From an uncultured Acidobacteriota bacterium (lineage in GTDB: Bacteria > Acidobacteriota > UBA6911), in the NCBI GenBank assembly GCA_963843575.1, contig CAWJKZ010000013.1:256001-320000 (forward strand): a stretch of DNA of 64,000 nt, written 5' to 3'. Each line of letters starts with the position of its first letter. Position 1 is the first letter of the stretch. The notes below the pieces were generated by a model. That model was not told where the DNA came from, ran no database searches, and saw only the letters and a program-made list of their open reading frames with translations. Both the position numbers and the translations under genes were made by a program. Of this stretch, positions 15,837-28,519 are shown in pieces.

Positions 15837-17216
15837 ATGCAATACCATCTCGAGAATGAGCTGTTTCAGATTGACGTCGGCCGGGAATGGATCGTGTATG
15901 CGCCCTTGAAGCGGATTGCCTTCCGGGCCAATGGACTGCTCGTCAACCTGCTCTGCGACATCCAGGACGGAGTCGCCATAGATCCAGAGAGTTGCGGCGA
16001 AGCTCTCGCGAAGCTGCAGGAATGCGGAGTCCTCGCCGCCACCCACGAAGAGTCCCCGTCCCGCGGCGTGCGTGATCTGTCCGAAGAGCCCTTCCAGCCC
16101 GTCAACCTCACGCTCTTCCTGACATCGGACTGCAACCTCGCGTGCCGGTACTGCTACGGTGACGGCGGAGCCCGGCGCGCCAGCATGCCCATGTCGGTCG
16201 GTTTGGCGGCAATCGACGTTCTCTTTCGGAACGCACGGCGGAAGGGAGCCCACAAGGTCCATCTCGGATTCCACGGGGGCGGAGAACCGACCCTGAGGAT
16301 GGACACCCTGAAGCGGCTGGTCCGGCATGCGCGCAGGCTGGCCCACGAGCACAAGATCGACCTTGCTCTCGGACTCACGTCAAACGGGGTGATGCCCGAA
16401 GAGGCAGCCAGGTGGATCGCGTGCAATATTCATCAACTCAACATCTCGCTCGACGGCCCCGGGGCCATGCAGGATTTCCAGCGGCCCATGAGAAACGGCG
16501 CCGGATCTTCCGAGAGAGTCGCCAGGACCCTTCGGATCCTGGAAGAGCAGGGAACCCCCTATCACCTCCGCGGCACCGTCACCCGTATCTCGGAGGAACG
16601 GATTCCGGAGATCGTGAGTTACCTCACCGGCAAGTTCTCTCCTGCCAGCATCCAGCTGGAACCCATGTTCAGCTCGAGTCGAGCGGAGAAGGCCGGCATT
16701 GGGAAGCCCGATGAGGGCAGCTTTGTGCGGGGGTTTCTTGCGGCGGGGGAGATTGCCAGGAAGAAAGGGATCCGCCTGCATTTTTCCGGCGACAGGTTCC
16801 CCGCGATTTCGAGCCGTTTCTGCAGCATCGGCTGGGAGACCTTTGCCGTTACCCCCGAGGGTCGCGCCACGGCGTGCTTTGAAGTGTTGCGGGAAGAGGA
16901 CTCCCGGTCGAAGATTTTTTTCTTCGGGACGTTCAGCGACGGGCACGGTTTTTCCTTTCAGCCGGACCGGATCCGACACCTGCGCGTCCTGTCCGAGACC
17001 GAGTTGCCCCACTGCCGCGACTGCTTTGCCAAGTTCCACTGCGCGGGCGATTGCCGGGCGAAAGGGCTCTACCCGGACAGCAGGGCGACGGAGGTACAGG
17101 GCACGAGTCGGTGTCGCATAATCCAGGCCCTGACGAAGGCCAGGTTGGTTGAACTCCTGGAGTCGGTGCCGCTGGTCCGACTGGAAAACGCCGGGGAGGC
17201 ACCGAACGAATGCTGA
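15837..17216 (+). CDS. Radical SAM/SPASM-domain protein 1
   Basis: CNLACRYC, FHGGGEPTL, SLDGP; SPASM-like C...GRATAC...CRDC.....CAGDC...C. Confidence 0.92.
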   Translation: MQYHLENELFQIDVGREWIVYAPLKRIAFRANGLLVNLLCDIQDGVAIDPESCGEALAKLQECGVLAATHEESPSRGVRDLSEEPFQPVNLTLFLTSDCNLACRYCYGDGGARRASMPMSVGLAAIDVLFRNARRKGAHKVHLGFHGGGEPTLRMDTLKRLVRHARRLAHEHKIDLALGLTSNGVMPEEAARWIACNIHQLNISLDGPGAMQDFQRPMRNGAGSSERVARTLRILEEQGTPYHLRGTVTRISEERIPEIVSYLTGKFSPASIQLEPMFSSSRAEKAGIGKPDEGSFVRGFLAAGEIARKKGIRLHFSGDRFPAISSRFCSIGWETFAVTPEGRATACFEVLREEDSRSKIFFFGTFSDGHGFSFQPDRIRHLRVLSETELPHCRDCFAKFHCAGDCRAKGLYPDSRATEVQGTSRCRIIQALTKARLVELLESVPLVRLENAGEAPNEC

Positions 17217-17288
17217 AGATTCCTCCGCCGGCACGAGTTGGCGGAGATAAGCCAACCCGCTCCTGGACTCGCACTTTCCCGGGTTAGA

Positions 17289-18698
17289 ATGATGGTTTCG
17301 GATGCACGCTACATCTACGCTATCCCCATCTCGGGGAAGCACCTCGTCTATGCCCCGCTAAAAAAGCTGGCAGCCCTGGTAAATGGGAAGGCCGTTGCCT
17401 CGCTTGGCGGGTGGCTCCGGGATGACGCGGGGGGAAAACAGCCGATTGCCGGGCTGGAGCCTCTGTGCGAAGGGGTGGAGGAGCCTGACGGGTACATGCC
17501 GGAAATGAAGACCGGCCCGATTTCCCCCGCTTTTCTGGGTATCATCCCGTCGCGCTCGTGCAACCTCGCCTGTTCGTACTGCAGTTTCGGGGCTGCGCAC
17601 GCGCCGCGCGAGCAGATGAACCCCCTCGTGGCGGCTTCGGCCGTCGAGTGGATGGCGGAGAATTGTGCGCAGCGCGGGGAAACGAGGCTCGAGGTTCACT
17701 TTTTTGGCGGTGAACCTCTGGTCGCCGCCGACGTCGTCGAGGTTGTCGTCCACAAGGCCCGGGCGATGGCCGAGAAACTCGGGCTGGTCCCGCACCTGGA
17801 GCTCAGTACCAACGGCCTATTCGATCAGGACTGGGCCGGTTTCGTGGGTGACTACTTCGACACGGTCGTGCTTTCGCTGGACGGGCCCGCCGACATCCAC
17901 GACCGGCAAAGGCCGAGGCCGGGAGGCGGGGGTAGCTTCGAGGCGGTCGTCGCCACCGCACGTTGTCTGGCCCAGTCGCAGGCCGAACTCTGTCTGCGCG
18001 GATGCATCAGTTCGGGCAGCGTCGCCCGCATGGAGGAGATCGCGGGCTGGTTTTGCGAAGCCTTCGATCCCAAGGCCGTCAATTTCGAGACGCTGCAACC
18101 CACCGTCCGCTCCGACAGCGCGGGCCTGCGACCGCCCGATCCCTATGAATTTGCCCGGCACTTCATCCGAGCGGAGAAGGTCGCACGGGAGGCGGGAGTC
18201 ACAACGGTCCATGCCTCGGCTGAAATCGGCAAGAACAGATTCAGCTTCTGCCCGGTCGGGACCGACACCCTGGTCGTCTCCCCGGACGGTCGCGTCAGCA
18301 GCTGTTACCTCCCCGAGCGTGAGTGGAAGGCCCGGGGGCTGGATTTCCATGTCGGCAGCGTCGGGCGGCGACGCACGTTCGGCATCGACCTCGAACACAT
18401 CGAAGCGCTGCGCGATTGCGTGACGACCGAGCCGGATCGGTGCGCGCGATGTTTCTGCCGCTGGACCTGCTCCGGGGGGTGCCGCGTCAACCACTCCTAT
18501 CCGGGCTGTTCACGCCATTACGACGACTTCTGCATTCAGACGCGGATCATCACGGCGTGCAGGCTCCTGCTGTCGCTTGGCCTGCCGGACCTCGTCGAGC
18601 CGCTGATCAGCCGTCGCGAAGACATGCAGTTGCTGGCGTTAAAAACCTCGGATCGGCTTGACGCTTGGGAGAACCAGGATGCCGGGCGTGACCTCTGA
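17289..18698 (+). CDS. Radical SAM/SPASM-domain protein 2 (paralog of 1; start approximate)
   Basis: CNLACSYC, FFGGEPL, SLDGP; CPVG...GRVSSC...CARC.....CSGGC...C; N-terminal VYAPLK motif shared with protein 1. Confidence 0.92.
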   Translation: MMVSDARYIYAIPISGKHLVYAPLKKLAALVNGKAVASLGGWLRDDAGGKQPIAGLEPLCEGVEEPDGYMPEMKTGPISPAFLGIIPSRSCNLACSYCSFGAAHAPREQMNPLVAASAVEWMAENCAQRGETRLEVHFFGGEPLVAADVVEVVVHKARAMAEKLGLVPHLELSTNGLFDQDWAGFVGDYFDTVVLSLDGPADIHDRQRPRPGGGGSFEAVVATARCLAQSQAELCLRGCISSGSVARMEEIAGWFCEAFDPKAVNFETLQPTVRSDSAGLRPPDPYEFARHFIRAEKVAREAGVTTVHASAEIGKNRFSFCPVGTDTLVVSPDGRVSSCYLPEREWKARGLDFHVGSVGRRRTFGIDLEHIEALRDCVTTEPDRCARCFCRWTCSGGCRVNHSYPGCSRHYDDFCIQTRIITACRLLLSLGLPDLVEPLISRREDMQLLALKTSDRLDAWENQDAGRDL

Positions 18699-18978
18699 GC
18701 ACGGGGCGAGCTTTCGTGTCGCTGCGCACGTGAGCTGGGCACCGGAGAGCTGTGGGATCCGTGTCGTCGACAGGCAGACGAACGGGGTCCGCGTTCTCGA
18801 TTACCCACGGGCTGCCGTCTGGGACTGCGTCGCCCGCGGGAGGACCTATGTCCAGGCACTACGATTGCTGTGCGCGCTGTATCCGGTCGACGAGTCCGGC
18901 GCGGAGCGCATGGTCCTGCAATGCCTCTCGGAGTGGATGAAGTGGGGCCTCGTGACACGCGTGAACGAGCATGACTAA
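18679..18978 (+). CDS. Stand-alone PqqD-like RiPP recognition element (RRE)
   Basis: 99 aa with beta strands followed by AAVWD...LLCALY.V......V...L......GLV; overlaps both neighbouring genes. Confidence 0.65.
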   Translation: MPGVTSEHGASFRVAAHVSWAPESCGIRVVDRQTNGVRVLDYPRAAVWDCVARGRTYVQALRLLCALYPVDESGAERMVLQCLSEWMKWGLVTRVNEHD

Positions 18979-20932
18979 CCTCTCCATCGTCGCGGACTGC
19001 AATCTGAATTGCCCGTACTGCTTTTCACGGTCCGCCTACCGCGGGGAGGCTGCCGTGCGCAGTATGCCGGCGCGCCGTTTCGATCTCATGCTGGAAATCC
19101 TGGTTCGGTCGGGACAGGACCGGGTGCGTCTGTTGGGCGGGGAGCCCACGCTTCATGCCGAGTTCCCCTCGCTCGCGGGCCAGGTGGTTGCCCGAGGCCT
19201 CGGTTTGCTCGTCTTTTCAAACGGATCGATCCCCGAATCCTCGCTGCGGGTTCTCGAGGAAATCCCCGGCCTGAGCGTCATGGTCAACATCGCGGCGACC
19301 ATGGGGCAGAACGGCGAGTTGCCGCCGCGCCAGCGCGAGGTACTCGGACGACTGCGCGCCCGTGTGTCCCTGGCTTTCACGATCTGCTCTCCCAACCCGC
19401 CGCTCGATCGCCTGCTGAACCTGGTCGAGGAATACGGGCTGGACAAGAGCGTCTGCCTGGGCCTGGCTCACGCCTGTCTCGCCGGTGGCAACAGGTTCCT
19501 CGATCCCATGCATTATCCGCGCGTGGGCGAGCAGATCGTCCTGTTCGCCCTTCGTGCGCGCCAGGAACGGGTGGCGCTCAATTTCGACTGCGGCTTCGTG
19601 CCCTGCATGTTTCCCTCTGAGAGCCGTGAAGTACTGGGCAAAGCTTTGGAGGAGATCGGAACCCATTGCGGCCCGATCCCCGATATCCTGCCCGATGGGG
19701 ACGCCGTCGCGTGCTATCCGCTTGCCCCTCTCGGCCGGCTGCCCGTCTCGCGCGAAACCACCACCGGAGACCTGAGGAAGGCCTTCGCACCTGTTCTGGA
19801 ACCTTACCGGCAGGTGGGCATATACCGGAAGTGCTCCGCGTGTGACTGGTCGAGAGAGGGAAAGTGCGCGGGAGGCTGTCTGGCCGACGCGATGAGACGT
19901 CTGCGCCAAGGCGGGACGGTATTCCAGGTCCCGGCACCTGCCAGAGACCGGATCACCACCTCTCGCGGCGGCGACCCGACGGCTCCGGACGCCACGGATG
20001 GTTCCGAAACCACAGCACGGGCAAAGTGGGTGGTCCCCTACATCGATCAGCCCCTCTCGTTCTGGGATGAGATCGCTCAGGATTTCCGGGACGACATCAA
20101 GGAAGTCTATTTCCCCCTTCCGGGCGACCTGCTGGGTTCGGGGCGGCCTCCGCAGCCCGCACGGCATCTGGAGGATTTCCTCGCTCGCTCGCTCCTGGGC
20201 CGCTCGGTGCTGATAAACCCCATAACCCTGCCCGGGCCGGTGGGGCAGCTCGCCCCGGCCATAATCGAACGACTTCGCGAACTCACCGGGCGATTTCAGG
20301 TGTCCAGTGTTACCGTCTCGAATCCCGAACTGGCCGAGCGGATCCGCGAGGCTCTCCCCGGCCTCTCGATCACCGCATCCGTCCTGATGGACATCGCTCA
20401 TCCAAGACAGGTCCTGATGCTGCACGGCGTTCTGGATGGACTGGTGCCATCGGGCCGGATCATGCGAAATCTCCCGGCCCTGCGCGAACTCCGCGCGGCT
20501 TTTCGAGGCCGCATCCGGCTGATCGTCAACGAGTCGTGCATTCCGGATTGTCCGTATCGCACACAGCATTTTTACGAGATGGCGCGCTGCCGCGTCGTCC
20601 CTCCGGGGACGCCCTGCGCCGCGTTGCTGGAGAGGACTCCCTGGCTTCGACTCACCGGCACCTGGGTCCTGCCGCAGCACCTGCACTTCTACCGGGGGGT
20701 CTACGACGAGTTGAAACTGGCAGGAAGGGTCACGCTGCGCAACCCCGGCGACTACGTGCGTGTCCTGCGCGCGTACACCCGTGGAGATCCCCTCTCCCCG
20801 CACGAAATCGGCGGAGGTCCGGCATCGGTGCTGGACAAGATGCTTGTCAGCGAGGCTCTTTTTGCCCAGACCCTGAGTTGTTCGAAACAGTGCCACGACT
20901 GTCGGATTTGCCGTGACTACTATGATCGGTAA
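18971..20932 (+). CDS. Radical SAM/SPASM domain fused to a C-terminal U32-family (UbiU/UbiV/TrhP/RlhA-like) domain
   Basis: N-terminal CNLNCPYC, LLGGEPTLH and CSAC......CAGGC. From ~20024: EVYFP...GSGR, ITASV, LIVNESCIPDCPYR..H, LKLAGR, CxxxCxxCxxC. Confidence 0.82.
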   Translation: MTNLSIVADCNLNCPYCFSRSAYRGEAAVRSMPARRFDLMLEILVRSGQDRVRLLGGEPTLHAEFPSLAGQVVARGLGLLVFSNGSIPESSLRVLEEIPGLSVMVNIAATMGQNGELPPRQREVLGRLRARVSLAFTICSPNPPLDRLLNLVEEYGLDKSVCLGLAHACLAGGNRFLDPMHYPRVGEQIVLFALRARQERVALNFDCGFVPCMFPSESREVLGKALEEIGTHCGPIPDILPDGDAVACYPLAPLGRLPVSRETTTGDLRKAFAPVLEPYRQVGIYRKCSACDWSREGKCAGGCLADAMRRLRQGGTVFQVPAPARDRITTSRGGDPTAPDATDGSETTARAKWVVPYIDQPLSFWDEIAQDFRDDIKEVYFPLPGDLLGSGRPPQPARHLEDFLARSLLGRSVLINPITLPGPVGQLAPAIIERLRELTGRFQVSSVTVSNPELAERIREALPGLSITASVLMDIAHPRQVLMLHGVLDGLVPSGRIMRNLPALRELRAAFRGRIRLIVNESCIPDCPYRTQHFYEMARCRVVPPGTPCAALLERTPWLRLTGTWVLPQHLHFYRGVYDELKLAGRVTLRNPGDYVRVLRAYTRGDPLSPHEIGGGPASVLDKMLVSEALFAQTLSCSKQCHDCRICRDYYDR

Positions 20933-23684
20933 CCCCATGGAAGAGGCGGAGCGGATACACCCGACCCTGCCTATATTCCTGGTGAACGCGGGCGAACGCC
21001 CCGTCATATACACTCCAGGACACCTGGCCGTGATCGGTCACCGGGACGCACACATGCTCCGCCGGGCGTGGGGAAACGGCGAGCCCCCTCCGGACAACTC
21101 GGTTGCCTTCGCCGTTGTCCCGTGGATCGAGATGCGGTCTTGTGAAGCCTGGTCCGAATGGGAGCGGCTGCTGAACGAACCTTTCGCCCCGGAGTGCCTG
21201 ACCATTTATCCGGGGAATCAATGCAACCTTGCCTGCCCATATTGCTACGCGGGGGGCGCGGCCGGCCGGCAAGCGGGCCGCACGATCGCCCCGGCCGCGG
21301 TTGAGTCCGCGGCCCGGCTCGTCGCAAGGAACTGCGCCGACAAGCGCAAGGCATTTCAACTCGTTCTCCACGGCGGGGGCGAGCCGACGCTTCACTGGGA
21401 CCTGGTCGAGAGGATAGTCCTGATCACACGCCGCGTCGCGGACGAGATCGGTGCCGAGTGGCTGGGGTATATCGCGACCAATGGGGTGCTTTCGGAGACC
21501 AGGGCGATCTGGCTCGCGCGGAATTTCACGGTCGGGCTTTCGTGCGACGGTCCACCGGAAATTCAGGACCGGCAACGGCCTCTGGCGGACGGGTCCCCGT
21601 CATCCGGCGTCGTGGAACGCACGGCCCGTCTCGTCGTGGACACCGGTGGGCGCCTCGAGGTGCGCGCGACCATAACGCCGGCTGCGATTCCCCGTCAACG
21701 CGAGATAGTCGAATACCTGCACCACAAGTTGGGAACCCGGCACATGCATTTCGAGCCGCTGTACCGCGCGTGGACGGCTGGGAGCGACGGGGCGTTCTCG
21801 TTGGATGACGTCGAGCCGTTTGCAGAGCACTTCCGCGCCGCCCAGGACGCCGCCAAAAGCCTGGGGGCCGAGCTTTTCCTGTCGGGTGTGCGGGTGCACG
21901 AGATCCACGGCCCGTATTGCGATTTAATCCGGCAGGTGTTGCGGCTCACCCCAGACGGCACCGCCACCGCCTGCTTTCTCGACACCGGCGGCGATGCCGG
22001 ACCGGAACGCGCGTGCAGGATCGGTGCGATGGACGAATCCACCGGCGAGTTCCTCCTGGACCGCGAGAGGATTGCACTGCACCGAATGGCTGTCGGGCGG
22101 ATCCCGCCGGGCTGCCACGGATGCCCGAATGTTTTCCACTGTGCCCGCGACTGCCCCGAGACCTGTTACGCCCGGGCGCAGGACGAACTCGGGTCTGCCG
22201 CTGGGGACGCGCCGGGCGGCCGCCGGGGTGTTCGTTGCCGGATAGCACAGCGCCTGTTCCTTTCGTGGATCCGGGATGCGGCCTTCGGCACCCGCGCATC
22301 GTCCACCGCCGAGTCGCGGGCGCGTTTCTCCACCCACGGGTGGACCACGTTGCTGTCCCAGTTGCAGCGCGCCGCTCCACGCATCGACGCGGACGCGATC
22401 GCTAGGCAATGGAGCGCATTGGGGCGGGGATATCGGGTCGGTGAACGCCGGCCGCCCATGCCGATATGGGCGAAGAGGGGTTTCGAGGACGGGGGGCCCG
22501 AGGCATGGCGCAAATTGGACGCGCAAAACAGCAACGCAACGGAAACCGCCCCTCTCTCGATATATGTACACATTCCCTTCTGCGACCGAAGGTGCGGCTA
22601 TTGCGATTGCCGCTCCGTCCTCATGCCCCGGCGCAATAGAATCGAAGAATCGTCCTACTGTCGTGTCCTGCTGGAGGAAATCGAGGCCTGGTCGAAAAAC
22701 GAACATCTATCCAGGCGGCCAGTGACGACCGTCCACTTCGGCGGCGGCACGCCGAACTATCTCGGCTTCGATCTCTTTGACCGGATCGTCGACGAGCTGC
22801 GGAGGCGTTTCAACACCGTTCGCGAAACGGAGTGGGCGCTCGAAACCACCGGATCGCTCCTGACCCGTGCGCACCTGGCACAGCTGAAGGATGCGGGTTT
22901 CACCCGGCTCCACGTGGGGGTGCAGACGCTGGAAGACGGACTGCGCCGTGCCATTGGGAGACGACAAAGCGGAGCGGGCATACTCGAGGGAATCGCCCTG
23001 GCCATCGAAATGGGTTTCGTGTCGTCGGTCGACGTCATCTACGGTCTCCCGGGCCAGGAACTACCTGGGTTCCTTGACTCCCTGGTGCGGCTCGCCGAGA
23101 GCGGCGCCCAGGGTTTCTCGCTCTACCGGCTGAACGTCTCGGCGCGGAACCTCCGGTTCATTCAGAAACGGATGACGCGGGGACGGGATCCTCTCCACGA
23201 TTACGCCCTTCTGCAGGCCGGTGAACAGCTGTTGCGCGCATCCGGGTACCGGAAGAACCATTTCACGCACTATGCCCTGGCGGCGGACCGGAACTTGTAT
23301 TTCACGCACCCGCAACGCGGGGAAGACCTCCTGGCGCTGGGCGCGAGCGCGGACGGGTTTTTCGGCCACTATCACTACAGGCACATGGATTACAGCGGCT
23401 ACGTCGGCCCCGGGGCCGGGGTTTTTTGCAGTTTGCAGGGGGGATTGCCGGAGACCGAGCGGGAGAAGAGGATTCGACCCGTCACGGCCTCACTGATGGG
23501 AGCCGGCATCAAGGCCGACTTGCTGCGGCGGTTCGGGCTGCAGGACCTGCTCGAGGAATGGAAGGAGTCCGCCCTGCTCGAGCCGGGTTCCGATCCCGGC
23601 ACCTTTGCCCTCACAGCCAACGGCTCGTGGTTTATCGATCGGATGATCGATGACGCGGAGTCTGTCCCGGTTTCCGGGGGCTGA
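20922..23684 (+). CDS. Double radical SAM protein: SPASM-type domain fused to a HemN-like domain
   Basis: Domain 1 has CNLACPYC, HGGGEPTL and CHGC.....CARDC. Domain 2 has IYVHIPFCDRRCGYC, HFGGGTP, GVQT and DVIYGLPGQ. Confidence 0.88.
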   Translation: MIGNPMEEAERIHPTLPIFLVNAGERPVIYTPGHLAVIGHRDAHMLRRAWGNGEPPPDNSVAFAVVPWIEMRSCEAWSEWERLLNEPFAPECLTIYPGNQCNLACPYCYAGGAAGRQAGRTIAPAAVESAARLVARNCADKRKAFQLVLHGGGEPTLHWDLVERIVLITRRVADEIGAEWLGYIATNGVLSETRAIWLARNFTVGLSCDGPPEIQDRQRPLADGSPSSGVVERTARLVVDTGGRLEVRATITPAAIPRQREIVEYLHHKLGTRHMHFEPLYRAWTAGSDGAFSLDDVEPFAEHFRAAQDAAKSLGAELFLSGVRVHEIHGPYCDLIRQVLRLTPDGTATACFLDTGGDAGPERACRIGAMDESTGEFLLDRERIALHRMAVGRIPPGCHGCPNVFHCARDCPETCYARAQDELGSAAGDAPGGRRGVRCRIAQRLFLSWIRDAAFGTRASSTAESRARFSTHGWTTLLSQLQRAAPRIDADAIARQWSALGRGYRVGERRPPMPIWAKRGFEDGGPEAWRKLDAQNSNATETAPLSIYVHIPFCDRRCGYCDCRSVLMPRRNRIEESSYCRVLLEEIEAWSKNEHLSRRPVTTVHFGGGTPNYLGFDLFDRIVDELRRRFNTVRETEWALETTGSLLTRAHLAQLKDAGFTRLHVGVQTLEDGLRRAIGRRQSGAGILEGIALAIEMGFVSSVDVIYGLPGQELPGFLDSLVRLAESGAQGFSLYRLNVSARNLRFIQKRMTRGRDPLHDYALLQAGEQLLRASGYRKNHFTHYALAADRNLYFTHPQRGEDLLALGASADGFFGHYHYRHMDYSGYVGPGAGVFCSLQGGLPETEREKRIRPVTASLMGAGIKADLLRRFGLQDLLEEWKESALLEPGSDPGTFALTANGSWFIDRMIDDAESVPVSGG

Positions 23685-23717: not shown

Positions 23718-24878
23718 CTATATCGTTTCGCAGCGCACCCATTTCCCCGGATCCCGGATGGAAAGCGGCGCTGTCCTCGCCAGCCTCACTATCGTGTGCC
23801 CCGGGTGCTTGCGGCGCACTTCCGCGAGTGTATCCGGGTGGAATAAGAAGTAATCCCGCGCATCCCTGAAGGCGCAGCAACTTTCCAGCAATCCCTCGTC
23901 CAGAAATTTCTCGTGCTCGGATTGCACGACGGGCGCGAGGCTGCGGCGCCGGCCTCGCAGCTGCCTCAGCTTGCTCTGCAGCGAGCAGTCGTTTACCGAA
24001 ATGCCCAGTTCGTCGTCCTGGACCCGCCGCATCACCTCAAAGGTCAGAGCACGGCTGTCTCGGGAGATGCTGCCACGGTGGCCGTCCGGGGTGACAAAGT
24101 CCCTCCGGGGCCCGGGCAGCGCGGCCGATCTGCTGCCTGCCTCGAACATCAGTTCGTGGAGGTTCAGGAACCTCACCCCCGCCGCGCTCCAGGGCGCCAG
24201 GCAGCCGAGGAGCTTTTCCGCGTGCTCGGGTATCGCCGGGATCTCCACGGTCACATTGGGAATGAGCGAGCCCGCGGTCGCCAGGTTTCGCATGACGCCC
24301 GGGTGGTCGTACCCGGTGGCGGCCATGTTGAAGCGGATCTCGTCGATGCCGAGTTCTCCCAGATACCGGAGCTTCCCTGCATCGGCGCGGAGTCCGTTCG
24401 TGTAGACCCAGAAATATTTCTCGGGATAGCGGGTCTTGAACCAGGCGACCCAGTCGAACAGCCCCTCCGGGTCCGCCAACGGCTCGCCGCCGGAAAAGCT
24501 GATCCCGGTAATACGGGTGCGGGCGTGATTTCCCGCGATCTGTTCGGGGGTCTCGCCGAATGCCGAACCGCGGTAGTCCTTCCGGAGATCCCGCGGGCTG
24601 CAACAGAAGGGACACTCGAGGTTGCAGCTTGTGCTCGTGAATATGCAGTCCCAGGTGCCTTCTTTGCAGGCCTCGCACCCGGGCGACAGCTCGCCCACGT
24701 GAAGGGTCTCCCCCTGCGCCGCGATCCGAACTCCAGGGATGTCCCTGGCGGCTCCGGCCACCTGTTCGTCCCAGGTCTGCCGAAGATCGTCGAAGCCGGT
24801 TTTATCGTGATTCCGAGAATGCAGCTGCCGCTGCACGGTCTCCAGAAACGGGGGCGAAGTTCTATCCTGGATCGACAT
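23718..24878 (-). CDS. Radical SAM protein (non-SPASM) with additional N-terminal CxxC
   Basis: LSPGCEAC..G...C.F....CNLECPFCC, FSGGEPL, YTNG, DEIRFN, VEIPAIP, NLHEL. Confidence 0.88.
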   Translation of the reverse strand: MSIQDRTSPPFLETVQRQLHSRNHDKTGFDDLRQTWDEQVAGAARDIPGVRIAAQGETLHVGELSPGCEACKEGTWDCIFTSTSCNLECPFCCSPRDLRKDYRGSAFGETPEQIAGNHARTRITGISFSGGEPLADPEGLFDWVAWFKTRYPEKYFWVYTNGLRADAGKLRYLGELGIDEIRFNMAATGYDHPGVMRNLATAGSLIPNVTVEIPAIPEHAEKLLGCLAPWSAAGVRFLNLHELMFEAGSRSAALPGPRRDFVTPDGHRGSISRDSRALTFEVMRRVQDDELGISVNDCSLQSKLRQLRGRRRSLAPVVQSEHEKFLDEGLLESCCAFRDARDYFLFHPDTLAEVRRKHPGHTIVRLARTAPLSIRDPGKWVRCETI

Positions 24879-24973: not shown

Positions 24974-25408
24974 TCAGGCTGGGTGATTGGACAGAGCGGC
25001 CCGCGCGCCGGTTTTCGCGAGGCTGTAGCAGGGGGTCATGCGGGCGATCTTCAGGTATCCCTGGCTTACCAGTGCCTCGACAAACTCGGTTACGTCGGCG
25101 GCGACAACCTCGTGTCCGAGGCTGAAATGCCGGCAGAGGATTTCCGCCACCCCATGGCAGTTCCTCCTGCCGTCGATCGCGTGCCAGATCGCGGCACCCG
25201 CTTCGTTCAGCGAGATGGACTCGCCCGAGCAGCTGGTGAGCACGGTCTCCCCTGCGACAACGGTGATGCGGACCTTGCCCGCGTGCACCGGCACCGGCGA
25301 TTTCTCCACCGGCAGAGGTCTTTCCCCGGCCGTCGCAGTTCGCGGTGCGGACAAAGCGGATCCGGCGGCGGACATCATTGCTGAAACGATGAAATGTCTG
25401 CGATTCAT
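24974..25408 (-). CDS. PqqD-family RRE protein with putative Tat signal peptide
   Basis: LNEAGAAIWHAIDG.....VAEILCRHF......DVTEFVEALVSQGYL PqqD pattern; N-terminus MNRRHFIV plus hydrophobic stretch; GAGG SD. Confidence 0.82.
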   Translation of the reverse strand: MNRRHFIVSAMMSAAGSALSAPRTATAGERPLPVEKSPVPVHAGKVRITVVAGETVLTSCSGESISLNEAGAAIWHAIDGRRNCHGVAEILCRHFSLGHEVVAADVTEFVEALVSQGYLKIARMTPCYSLAKTGARAALSNHPA

Positions 25409-25450
25409 GATCGGTGCCTCGCGAGCAAGTCCGGATCCCAGGATTCGCTC

Positions 25451-25777
25451 CTAGTTGGGATACCAGTAATGAGAATCCGACCCGCAACCGACGTACGAAA
25501 CGCACGAGCATTCCGTGTCGCAGGTGCAGACCTGGTTGCAAGTGCAGACCTGGTTGCACGTGCAGGTGGTTTCGCCCACCGCGTGACAGGCGCAGACGGA
25601 GTCACAGCAGCACTGGCCCGAGGCCTCCTGTGCCGGCGTCGGGGCGGCCTGGCGTTTGAACCCCGGTTTCTGATAACTTTCCTGCCCCCCGAGCTTAACC
25701 AGTCGGTAAAGTTGCGGCTCTTCCCCGCCCGGTTCCGGGGTGCGCTTCAGTCGGAACCGATTGTTTTTTTCTTCCAT
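25451..25777 (-). CDS. Putative RiPP precursor, 108 aa, Cys-rich CxC-repeat core with HYWYPN C-terminus
   Basis: GAAGG SD; hydrophilic Cys-free 55-aa leader; 14 Cys in the last 53 aa; directly upstream of an RRE and a radical SAM gene. Confidence 0.82.
   Translation of the reverse strand: MEEKNNRFRLKRTPEPGGEEPQLYRLVKLGGQESYQKPGFKRQAAPTPAQEASGQCCCDSVCACHAVGETTCTCNQVCTCNQVCTCDTECSCVSYVGCGSDSHYWYPN
25524..25565. repeat. 18-bp tandem repeat encoding CTCNQV units of the precursor
   Basis: GTGCAGACCTGGTTGCAA GTGCAGACCTGGTTGCAC GTGCAG. Confidence 0.9.
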
Positions 25778-25822
25778 GGAATGACCTTCGTATGAATTCC
25801 GTCCGCCGATTGGCGACACGAC

Positions 25823-28519
25823 TCAGTTCAGCGTTCTTACCAGGCGTAACCCCACATAGCCGTAACGGTCGTCGGACCGCTGGTAGCCGTAAGAGTAGCG
25901 ATGGGCCAGGCGCATCAGGTTGGCATCGCCAACATAGGGATTCGCCGAGCCCCCACGCGCCATCCTGTTACTGCTCGCGCCGGATGTCCCGAGATAATCG
26001 GTCACGGTCCCGGATGGATAGTAACCATCCCGATCCCAGCACCACTCCTCGGCGTTGCCGTGGACATCCTTGAGGTTCCAGGCGTTGGCCAGCTTCAGGC
26101 CGACCGGGTGGAGCGAGCCGCCGGAATTAGCGCAGAACCAGGCCACCGACTCCAGGGCCGGCAGCGCGCCTGCGGTGCAGCTGGTCTTCGTGGTGCTGTT
26201 GAATTTGGGCTCCTCGATGTGGAAGGGGCCCGAGCTGCCGGCACGGGCGAAGTACTCCCACTCACCCTCCGAGGGTAACCTGTAGCCGTTGGCGCTGAAG
26301 TTGCAGTAGATCGGATCGGACAGATAATTCGTCGCGTCGATCGGGGTGCGAAAATCGGCGTCCTTGTAGTAGCAACGCGTCAGACCGTTGCGCGCCGAGA
26401 GCAGGTTGGCGAAGAGGATCGCCTCGAACCACTTCACGCCGTCCACGGGCTCGGACATCGAGTGCGAGGTATCCAAAGGGTCGGCAGGGAGCGAGGGTTG
26501 TGCCGACCGCAAGTCCGCCCACATTTGCTGCGTTACCTCGGTCTCCATCACCGCGAAGCTCTTCGACAGGATGTGGGTGAACTGCGCCTCGTAGGAACTG
26601 TGGCCTATCTCCCCGCTGGGCGATCCCTGGGTGAATCCCGCCGACCCCGTGGCCGGGACAAACCGCATGTTGCCCACGATCCCATCAACGCTGTGCAGCC
26701 CTCCTCCCAGCCCTTCGGCGACCTTGACGGCCGTTATCGTCTGGCCCGACCTCGGGCAGTTGGTGGAACTGATCGTCAGGGTGCCCGTCATATGGGTCGA
26801 GTCTGTGAATGAGCCGCTGAAACTCAGGCCGCCCGAGCGCAGGTCGATCCGACTGGCCGATGTCGGGAGGCTGCCGATGGAGATCTTGCAGTTGTTGCAG
26901 TCGGTGGCGGAGACCTTGTAGGTGTGGACGAAATCGCGGATCGAACCGGAACTGTCCACGTTGAACGAAACGTCCGTCCCCTTCCAGCTTCCCCGGGTGG
27001 TCTGCGGGGTGGCGTCCGTCGTCGTGTGTGGCGGCACCCCGGTGTATTGCAGGCCGGTCGCCGTCATTTCCATTCTCAAGACGGTCATGCAGATGTTGGC
27101 CCCCGCCTCGACGGCCAGCGAGCCGACAAAGCCGTCCGGTATGCCGGAAAAAATCCCGCCCGCGCCGCAGAAGAACAGGGCGCTCTGTCCCGTGTATGGA
27201 ATCGTCTGCTGCTGGACCTGATTGCCCGCGGAGTCGTAGAGGGTGAACTTAACCTGAAACCCCGTGCCGGCGTAGGAGACGAAAGCCAGCCCCGTGTTCA
27301 CCATCGCCGATTTCTCGACTGGCAGCGTGAATGACCGGCCTTCGGGACTGTGGGCGATTCCGATCGAGTCGATCAGTTTGTTGCTGAACACATAGTTGTA
27401 GAAGAACGCCGTGGCTATCGAGCCCATCGGACTGCTGTCGCTCTGGATCGCGAGATAGCCGGAACGCACCTGGCTGTCGCCGACAAGGACGTATCTAGCC
27501 GTCGCCTTCGGTCCCAACGAAATGTCGAACGATGACGAACCGGTCATGTTGATGCTGTTCAACGTCCAGCCGCTGGACCAGGACTGGTCGTTCGCCCGGC
27601 GGAGCGTGGCCCGCCCCGCCCATATCGAGCTCGATTCATTCGAAACGATCAGGACCGTCTGGTACTCGCCCCCGAGGGCCAGCTGGGCGTAGGTAAATCG
27701 AGGGTCCGCCGACTGCGCGGCGGGGTGCGGCGGGAAACTCGTGTATTGCACGCCGTCGGGCGTGTTCTCCATGCGCAGGACCGTCATGCACAAGTTCTGG
27801 TCGGACTCGACGACCAGCGAACCGACGAACCCGTCGGCTATGCCCGGGAAGATGCCGCCCCCCGGGCCGGTGAAGAAGCGTGCGCTTTGCCCGTCGTAGT
27901 TGAGCGTCACCTGCTGGACCTGGCGGCCGACCCCGTCGAAGAGCGTGAATTTTATCGGGAAGCCTGTCTTTACGGAGGATACGTAAGCCAGCCCGGTGTT
28001 CACGCTGGCCGATTTCTCGGCCGCGAACGTGAATGCGCGGCCTTCATAGCTCGGGGGCACCCCGATCGAGTCGATCAGCTGATTCCCGACGATGTAATTG
28101 TAGAAAAATGCCGTGGCGATGTTGTTAATCGACGTGCTGCTCTGGATCGTCAAGTATCCGGAACGGGTGGTGTCGTCGCCGGCGAGGACGAACTTGCGGG
28201 TCGCCTTTGGGCCGAGCGAAATATCGAACGACGTTGAGCCCGTCTTCGCCGCGCCGTTCAGGGTCCATGCGGATGTCCACGACTGATCGTTTCCCTTTCG
28301 GAGGTTGGCCGTGCCGGACCAGGCCGTGCTCGACTCGTTGGAAACGACAAGGACGGTCTGGTACGACCCTCCCAGCGCCAGTTGGGCGTAGGTCAGACCG
28401 GCAGAAGTCTGGGCCTGATTGGTGTCGATCGCAAGACAAGCCAGTAGAATGGCGGACAGAATCCCCAGCGCTCTATATGCCACGGTACTCCTTTCCAGCC
28501 AGCGGACCGCAGCCATCAC
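25823..28519 (-). CDS. Secreted protein with two tandem ~225-aa repeats and a C-terminal FGE-sulfatase (SUMF1-like) domain
   Basis: Signal-like N-terminus; repeats TYAQLALGG...QYT..PPH at ~27724-28396 and ~27027-27697; ETEVT, YRLPSEGEWEY.ARAG, DVHGNAEEWCWD, RGGS, GLRLVR. Confidence 0.88.
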   Translation of the reverse strand: MMAAVRWLERSTVAYRALGILSAILLACLAIDTNQAQTSAGLTYAQLALGGSYQTVLVVSNESSTAWSGTANLRKGNDQSWTSAWTLNGAAKTGSTSFDISLGPKATRKFVLAGDDTTRSGYLTIQSSTSINNIATAFFYNYIVGNQLIDSIGVPPSYEGRAFTFAAEKSASVNTGLAYVSSVKTGFPIKFTLFDGVGRQVQQVTLNYDGQSARFFTGPGGGIFPGIADGFVGSLVVESDQNLCMTVLRMENTPDGVQYTSFPPHPAAQSADPRFTYAQLALGGEYQTVLIVSNESSSIWAGRATLRRANDQSWSSGWTLNSINMTGSSSFDISLGPKATARYVLVGDSQVRSGYLAIQSDSSPMGSIATAFFYNYVFSNKLIDSIGIAHSPEGRSFTLPVEKSAMVNTGLAFVSYAGTGFQVKFTLYDSAGNQVQQQTIPYTGQSALFFCGAGGIFSGIPDGFVGSLAVEAGANICMTVLRMEMTATGLQYTGVPPHTTTDATPQTTRGSWKGTDVSFNVDSSGSIRDFVHTYKVSATDCNNCKISIGSLPTSASRIDLRSGGLSFSGSFTDSTHMTGTLTISSTNCPRSGQTITAVKVAEGLGGGLHSVDGIVGNMRFVPATGSAGFTQGSPSGEIGHSSYEAQFTHILSKSFAVMETEVTQQMWADLRSAQPSLPADPLDTSHSMSEPVDGVKWFEAILFANLLSARNGLTRCYYKDADFRTPIDATNYLSDPIYCNFSANGYRLPSEGEWEYFARAGSSGPFHIEEPKFNSTTKTSCTAGALPALESVAWFCANSGGSLHPVGLKLANAWNLKDVHGNAEEWCWDRDGYYPSGTVTDYLGTSGASSNRMARGGSANPYVGDANLMRLAHRYSYGYQRSDDRYGYVGLRLVRTLN

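Follow-up and report, generated by a model that had tools for sequence, protein, structure and literature searches.

A two-enzyme radical-SAM fusion and a candidate C-terminal-tail maturation system in an uncultured Acidobacteriota bacterium

We analyzed a stretch of 64,000 nucleotides from an uncultured Acidobacteriota bacterium (assembly GCA_963843575.1, contig CAWJKZ010000013.1, positions 256,001 to 320,000), here called the window and numbered from its first letter, and focused on a gene predicted to encode two different radical S-adenosylmethionine (SAM) enzymes on a single chain. This fusion gene closes a forward-strand series consisting of rSAM1, rSAM2, a small PqqD-like gene, rSAM3, and the fusion itself, and it faces a converging reverse-strand series that encodes an FGE-sulfatase-domain protein, a 108-amino-acid (aa) precursor, a PqqD protein, and rSAM5. 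The fusion gene and its parts are as follows, with model confidence expressed as the predicted local distance difference test (pLDDT).

20913..23684, + strand: fusion gene, one uninterrupted frame of 923 aa, or 920 aa from the ATG at 20922
20940..21182, + strand: N-terminal strands-plus-helices domain (aa ~10-90), delimited by model secondary structure; the best structural match of the N half is CteB
21195..21902, + strand: first radical-SAM core, with CX3CX2C at 21222-21245 (C104, C108, C111; CNLACPYC)
21918..22238, + strand: SPASM-type auxiliary-cluster region, C336-X12-G349-X4-C354; C401-X2-C404-X5-C410-X3-C414; C418; C442
22245..22412, + strand: variable linker (aa ~445-500), pLDDT <50 at aa 461-472, where natural split forms divide
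22425..23663, + strand: HemN-like radical-SAM domain, with CX3CX2CXC at 22581-22610, YxHxPFC, GGGTP, and a HemN-type C-terminal domain

The fusion gene and its two halves

The frame runs through 923 codons without an internal stop, its start overlaps the stop of the upstream rSAM3 gene, and the form beginning at ATG 20922 is 100% identical to a protein database entry of 920 aa (P0002). Pfam Radical_SAM (PF04055) was matched in two stretches of the product (125.1 bits, E 4.1e-36, cut-off 29.5), and all six radical-SAM motif cysteines of the two halves were invariant across 28 aligned homologues. A search of 5.8 billion proteins, with 8,000 candidates scored, returned 171 matches at E <= 1e-3; the best 120 of these comprised the window's own protein and 119 others with 38-49% identity over 90-100% of the query, giving at least 119 full-length fusion homologue clusters. 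Scanning one genome per species yielded 227 related stretches, from which 73 loci were kept, and the arrangement of the halves was counted over these loci by tblastn.

36 of 73 loci: both halves in one continuous frame
12 of 73 loci: halves as adjacent genes in different frames, mostly in Chloroflexota
12 of 73 loci: both halves within one cluster but apart
10 of 73 loci: N half alone
3 of 73 loci: C half alone (several of the loci with a single half are truncated by contig ends)

The halves are thus separate genes of the same cluster in 24 of the 73 loci, and the natural split point, at query residues ~457-491, coincides with the variable, low-confidence linker of the AlphaFold2 model.

That two genes were joined by an assembly or frameshift error is hardly credible. 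Short contigs from 3 public sequencing runs span 22154-22490 gap-free, and we found no support for an artefact, with 22491-22550 lacking such contig coverage; the contigs matching the fusion gene lie at 21900-22001, 22138-22511, and 22716-22783. No RNA run among the public runs matched the stretch, and none of the runs contained half of its sequence words. Because 36 of 73 loci read through the junction in one frame and the homologues are conserved over nearly their whole length, the comparative evidence argues that the fusion is no assembly artefact, and on sequence grounds we take the joining of two different radical-SAM enzymes to be real. The first-pass annotation, which started the gene at 20922, had read two radical SAM domains in one polypeptide, with CNLACPYC near 21222 and CDRRCGYC near 22581; both motifs start exactly there, the junction (~22280-22550) holds neither a stop nor an indel, and the fusion is kept in other genomes.

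Three fusion homologues of ~1,520-1,580 aa (P0078, P0079, and P0093) were also noted. In P0078, the only one compared, the extra N-terminal part corresponds to the rSAM3 product (45% identity over 615 residues), so that rSAM3, the SPASM half, and the HemN-like half lie on one chain with three radical-SAM domains and a U32-like part.

The N half shows the canonical SPASM cysteine pattern, CX9-15GX4C ... CX2CX5CX3C ... C. C104, C108, C111, C354, C401, C404, C410, C414, C418, and C442 were invariant in the alignment of 28 homologues, and C336 was kept in at least 90% of them. Pfam SPASM (PF13186) was not reported for the fusion protein at E <= 0.01; homologue P0018 carries a precomputed match to this model. 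NCBIfam models of SPASM peptide maturases matched residues ~94-314, with PapB best (84.7 bits) and nif11-type, anSME, and HxsB models also represented, all below the curated cut-offs for the PapB, SCIFF, anSME, and cyclophane-forming equivalogs (for PapB, 84.7 vs 340 bits). The first domain had been described as resembling rSAM1 and rSAM2, and the three are indeed paralogous, the N half sharing 35% identity with rSAM1 over residues 86-416 and 29% with rSAM2 over residues 87-414. The AlphaFold2 model of the fusion (pLDDT 85.3; predicted template-modelling score, pTM, 0.59) was compared with the PDB by Foldseek and matched the sactisynthase CteB (E 2.3e-16) and anSME (E 1.7e-13), followed by ChlB, TigE, SkfB, and SuiB. 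Going by sequence and model, the N half is a SPASM-type peptide maturase, and its N-terminal domain (aa ~10-90) is probably the recognition element (RRE) of a maturase acting on peptides that are synthesized by ribosomes and modified post-translationally (RiPPs).

The C half has the HemN fold in the same model (HemN 1OLT, E 1.3e-24, TM 0.76 on target). CDRRCGYC at nucleotide 22581 supplies C557, C561, and C564, followed by the fourth cysteine C566, and this four-cysteine CX3CX2CXC arrangement, as in Escherichia coli HemN, was present in 28/28 family members; Y551, H553, P555, C557, C561, C564, C566, T606, and G610-G612 (the GGG of GGGTP) were invariant across the homologues. HemN 1OLT was also the closest sequence match in the PDB (1.3e-27), and the class C methylase NocN was matched at 1.4e-17. 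Y551 aligns with HemN Y56, and the part of PMC12871812 available to us states that this tyrosine stacks on the second SAM (SAM-II) and appears conserved in HemN-like radical SAM methylases. By its fold, its CX3CX2CXC motif, and its SAM-II tyrosine, the C half can be assigned as a HemN-like (class C type) radical-SAM domain, and the HemN signatures read in it by the first-pass annotation were borne out.

NCBIfam models matching residues ~512-913 were led by the anaerobilin synthase ChuW/HutW (TIGR04107; 164.2 bits vs a cut-off of 400), STM4012 (141.4 bits), oxygen-independent coproporphyrinogen oxidase HemN (TIGR00538; 138.7 vs 324.95), and HemW (TIGR00539; 132-134 vs 205.4), and every NCBIfam score on the fusion lay far below its curated cut-off. 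HemW homologues are defined by a CXHNX2YW motif in the part of PMC13495026 available to us. The HNxxYW motif was found in 0/28 family members, whose residues at the corresponding site are DRNLY[YF] or similar, and the genome's own HemW, encoded on another contig, carries SRHNMKYW and scores 248 bits against the 205.4-bit cut-off, compared with 134 for the fusion. The C half as a housekeeping HemW or HemN was rejected on the cut-offs, the motif, and the separate genomic HemW. A further proposal casts the C half as a HemW-like heme chaperone, or an enzyme handling heme, that would supply an exported carrier with heme or alter the heme destined for it; it could draw on the HemW (132 bits) and ChuW/HutW (164 bits) matches and on the twin-arginine translocation (TAT)-type export of the carrier proteins described below. 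We regard it as very unlikely, given that HNxxYW is missing from the family and present in the genome's own HemW, that all scores fall below their cut-offs, and that no CxxCH heme-binding motif was seen in the tails by eye, no pattern search having been made.

The HYWxPN tail family and its covariation with the HemN-like half

The candidate substrate is encoded 1.8 kb from the fusion gene.

25451..25777, - strand: precursor of 108 aa with CxC repeats, ending in HYWYPN; core CCCDSVCACH...CTCNQVCTCNQVCTCDTECSCVSYVGCGSDSHYWYPN-stop

In the 6.68-Mb genome, with its 122,703 open segments, this precursor beside the cluster was the sole open reading frame (ORF) ending in YWxPN, and we propose from its sequence and position that it is the substrate of the fusion in this genome. 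No Pfam or NCBIfam model matched its tail. We surveyed ORFs ending in the motif across the 73 loci and the window (74 sources) and identified 60 tails in 45 of the 74 sources, with Tyr, Trp, Pro, and Asn each found in 60/60. Position -6 was His in 57/60 and Ser in 3/60, and position -3 was Y, H, R, or F. C[TSV]C[DNV] units come before most of the tails, and the tails in four loci contain at most 1 Cys.

In 44 loci, tails of the HYWxPN type form the end of carrier proteins, WD40 proteins with a TAT signal among them. The 27 large tail-bearing ORFs that were scanned comprised 19 WD40 propellers, 4 Ig-like, 2 SH3_3, and 1 ConA-like proteins and 1 unmatched ORF, and a twin-arginine-like motif lies near the start of 44 of the 47 uncut large carriers. 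The survey also included seven short forms of the tail ORF, the window's precursor being one. In 2 loci, a HYWYPN tail is fused to a PqqD domain (L047:13782-14258, - strand, 57.2 bits; L056:16320-16778, + strand, 48.3 bits). The several domain types of the carriers, together with these PqqD fusions, suggest that the tail is a portable C-terminal module. As a side observation, L047 and L056 hold chaperone and substrate on one chain.

The HemN-like half was present in 43/43 sources with His-type tails, all 43 of which had both fusion halves, and in 0/2 loci with Ser-type tails (L043 and L045, with SYWYPN tails), which also lack the U32-like C-terminal half of rSAM3. Whole-genome searches of L043, L045, L027, L028, and L063 gave best HemN-like matches of only 62-107 bits with 28-36% identity, and no HemN-like orthologue was found in these five genomes; the C halves of other loci scored at least 187 bits (>280 in all but one locus). 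All three HemN-less genomes with a visible tail have SYWYPN, with Ser at -6. A matched pair shows the difference directly: the L030 tail ends ...CTCVPVHYWYPN and its locus has the domain, and the only tail in the L027 genome (G003), which is without the domain, ends ...CSCVPVSYWYPN. Counted over sources, His or Ser against presence of the HemN-like half stands at 43/0 against 0/3 (exact p 6.6e-5, kinship ignored).

The cysteine repeats follow a different gene. rSAM1 was found in 0/4 Cys-poor loci and in 35/40 Cys-rich loci, the five exceptions lying at short or cut flanks, and this tracking points to rSAM1 as the enzyme that crosslinks the cysteines. Locus L008 is the minimal case, in which a WD40 carrier with a Cys-free tail is accompanied by the fusion as the sole radical-SAM gene within 10 kb, which suggests that the fusion most likely acts on HYWxPN and makes thioether formation unlikely for the SPASM half. 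Two further proposals of the first-pass annotation gain support from these patterns: functional coupling of the two domains agrees with natural fusion and fission and with their constant co-occurrence, and the tie between the HemN-like domain and the aromatic tail agrees with the His/Ser covariation.

Neighbouring genes of the cluster

The other genes around the fusion and its precursor are listed below.

15837..17216, + strand: rSAM1, SPASM maturase (Pfam/NCBIfam), tracking Cys-rich tails across loci
17238..18698, + strand: rSAM2, SPASM maturase (Pfam/NCBIfam)
18658..18978, + strand: small PqqD-like protein with an uncertain start codon; 20.8 bits to Pfam PqqD against a cut-off of 23.4; conserved in 25 loci
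18971..20932, + strand: rSAM3; N half radical SAM, C half (19991-20929) a U32-like TIM barrel with invariant cysteines
23718..24878, - strand: rSAM5, small radical-SAM protein; its cluster c14 occurs in 12 sources
24974..25408, - strand: PqqD-family protein, Pfam PqqD 46.8 bits; family cluster c2 in 45 loci
25823..28519, - strand: FGE-sulfatase-domain protein of 898 aa, with a TGA stop in frame with the precursor ORF

The C half of rSAM3 (aa 341-653) gave a model with a pLDDT of 88.9, whose top Foldseek match was the U32 peptidase Mk0906 (E 6.1e-8, TM 0.69), followed by generic TIM barrels. Pfam U32 (PF01136) was matched weakly (14.7 bits vs 22.4, E 0.019), and PDB sequence searches with this half found nothing. 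Its invariant cysteines include a terminal C-X3-C-X2-C-X2-C, and the U32-like half is a separate gene in Chloroflexota loci. The U32 members UbiU/UbiV, RlhA, and TrhP are oxygen-independent hydroxylases.

The PqqD-family protein at 24974-25408 has a twin-arginine-like N-terminus by eye (MNRRHFIV...), for which NCBIfam gave no TAT match, and the window's short precursor, unlike this partner, has no twin-arginine-like start; to judge from these sequences, the precursor peptide could be exported by hitch-hiking on its PqqD partner. The TGA stop of the FGE-like protein (25823-25825, - strand) shares its frame with the precursor ORF in the downstream stretch 25451-25822, a 1-in-3 coincidence. A tRNA-Sec is present in the genome and a 9-bp hairpin begins 2 nucleotides past this TGA; an Rfam search over 25400-25950 gave no selenocysteine insertion sequence (SECIS) or other family above chance. 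Readthrough of the TGA would yield a carrier-plus-tail protein resembling those of other genomes, and the precursor has its own ATG with GAAGG upstream. Further, an Armatimonadota variant of the cluster (L002:6123-9933, + strand) encodes an extra B12-binding radical-SAM protein, a family 2 glycosyltransferase (GT2), and a PMT_2-type protein, and these extra genes adjoin four tail-bearing WD40 genes.

Candidate chemistry, distribution, and comparison with known systems

We consider it somewhat better than an even chance (roughly 0.55) that the fusion is a natural two-enzyme signature enzyme of a conserved C-terminal-tail maturation system, in which a SPASM step and HemN-like one-carbon (C1) transfer are directed at HYWxPN. 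In such a system, the PqqD-type partners and the RRE-like N-terminal domain would hold and present the precursor tail, and the SPASM half would abstract hydrogen and form a non-thioether crosslink or carry out an oxidative step within HYWxPN. The HemN-like half would bind two SAMs, make a SAM-methylene radical, and attach a one-carbon unit at an sp2 carbon within the aromatic triad. His(-6) might be the target or a nucleophile trapping the intermediate, by analogy with the NosN/NocN class C chemistry described in the available part of PMC12871812. rSAM1 would crosslink the CxC repeats. That C1 transfer is coupled to crosslinking, as the first-pass annotation proposed, we infer by analogy.

Several observations weigh against this proposal. 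The closest solved relative of the C half, HemN, is itself a decarboxylase and not a methylase, and the C half, at 164 bits, falls far short of the 400 that the ChuW model requires. The His/Ser covariation may rest on few evolutionary events, and the HemN-less form possibly has one origin; the HemN-less rows are scattered in a quick N-half tree, whose backbone lacks the resolution to count independent losses. The U32-like half was likewise not found in 4/5 of the HemN-less genomes, the match in G003 being on another contig, so the link to His could belong to the U32-like half instead. rSAM2 and rSAM3 accompany 3/4 of the Cys-free tails and so may also act on HYWxPN, and L010 has the fusion and no tail gene within 10 kb.

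The relationship to HemN also raises the alternative that the HemN-like half performs HemN-type radical chemistry without carbon transfer, for example oxidative decarboxylation at the C-terminal Asn or an acidic side chain, followed by a crosslink. MftC acts in this order, decarboxylation then crosslink, on the C-terminal Tyr of mycofactocin. Among solved structures, HemN comes closest by both sequence and Foldseek, the motif always lies at the very C-terminus with Asn in 60/60, and the PqqD partners with a SPASM enzyme parallel the logic of mycofactocin and pyrroloquinoline quinone (PQQ). We nevertheless consider decarboxylation unlikely, as it leaves unexplained why genomes without the domain have Ser in place of His(-6) yet keep Asn, and as the best NCBIfam match is the methyl-transferring ChuW/HutW.

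Alternatively, the two halves might act on different sites or at different steps without mechanistic coupling, the fusion merely securing equal expression or complex assembly, a view consistent with separate halves in 24/73 loci (12 of them non-adjacent), with the uncertain domain placement in the model (pTM 0.59), and with the low-confidence linker. Set against it are the fused form kept in 36 loci over many phyla, the presence of both halves in all 43 His-type sources, and the L008 cluster, which consists only of this enzyme and the tail, and we judge the uncoupled arrangement quite unlikely.

Extending the proposed two-step tail maturation, we also entertain a doubtful idea, namely that the cluster turns the invariant C-terminal His-Tyr-Trp of TAT-exported beta-propellers, mostly in anaerobic bacteria, into an aromatic, peptide-derived cofactor tethered to the protein or into a redox-active crosslinked centre. 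Its steps would be a radical crosslink by the SPASM half, SAM-derived C1 insertion by the HemN-like half, and oxygen-independent hydroxylation by the U32-like half, with thioether-stapled or metal-binding CxC repeats serving as scaffold. If true, PQQ, mycofactocin, or cysteine tryptophylquinone (CTQ) would have in it an anaerobic counterpart that stays on its protein.

According to the record titles of the 227 related stretches, the system occurs in well over ten phyla. Closer to the window, the fusion was identified in 2/30 relatives (genomes G006-G035; 40% and 42% identity) and not in a same-genus genome of 81% completeness. G033, an unpublished genome among the 30, gave only a weak HemN-like match and supports nothing else stated here. 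This patchy presence among relatives suggests an accessory, horizontally moved cluster. The family offers a defined substrate, the short invariant HYWxPN end, together with a natural control in the Ser-type tails of genomes without the HemN-like domain and with natural split and fused forms. Tail modification of exported WD40 and other carriers may be common yet unnoticed in anoxic soils, sediments, and reactors.

A handful of natural-product pathways are known to use class C (HemN-like) radical-SAM enzymes. In the literature we found, no enzyme of this class is joined to a SPASM maturase or has a protein tail as its substrate, and neither the fusion nor the tail motif strings nor the cluster is described in the literature searched; the supplementary list of PMC10288494 (15,108 enzymes), which lay outside the search, may contain members. 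The main text of PMC10288494 mentions neither HemN nor WD40, and the words fused, fusion, SPASM, and RiPP are all absent from the review PMC10114718.

The fusion resembles SPASM maturases carrying an RRE (CteB, PapB, anSME, SCIFF) in its radical-SAM core, in a SPASM pattern of seven to eight Cys, in a recognition-type domain at the N-terminus, and in having PqqD partners within its cluster, and it differs from them in having a second radical-SAM enzyme on the same chain. With HemN 1OLT and the class C C1-transferases (NosN/NocN, TbtI, C10P, ChuW/HutW), it shares the partial TIM barrel with a C-terminal domain, CX3CX2CXC, the YxHxPFC tyrosine of the second SAM, and GGGTP. Here, however, the domain is fused behind a SPASM maturase and lies below every curated cut-off, and a ribosomal protein tail presumably takes the place of a porphyrin or thiopeptide side ring as substrate.

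What the cluster shares with the mycofactocin (MftA/B/C) and PQQ (PqqA/D/E) systems is the pairing of a PqqD-type chaperone with a SPASM enzyme around a short aromatic motif that is conserved and, in mycofactocin, sits at the extreme C-terminus. The present cluster differs in its five radical-SAM proteins, with six such domains between them, and in its U32-like domain and CxC repeats; its tail is usually part of a large exported protein, and no protease adjoins the cluster in the window. An earlier example of a single chain with two radical-SAM domains is FbiC, a fused CofG/CofH, whose product is a small-molecule cofactor and whose domains are of neither the SPASM nor the HemN-like type. In the CrpC/CrpA system of Methanococcus voltae, as presented in the available part of PMC13692751, a SPASM radical-SAM enzyme modifies a cysteine-rich protein and installs ranthionine. 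Both systems, on that partial account, direct a SPASM enzyme at a cysteine-rich protein rather than a short peptide, and Crp differs in having one enzyme, no HemN-like partner, and no HYWxPN end. Within the literature searched, the kinds of enzyme in the window are known, and no description was found of the architecture, the substrate class, or the system.

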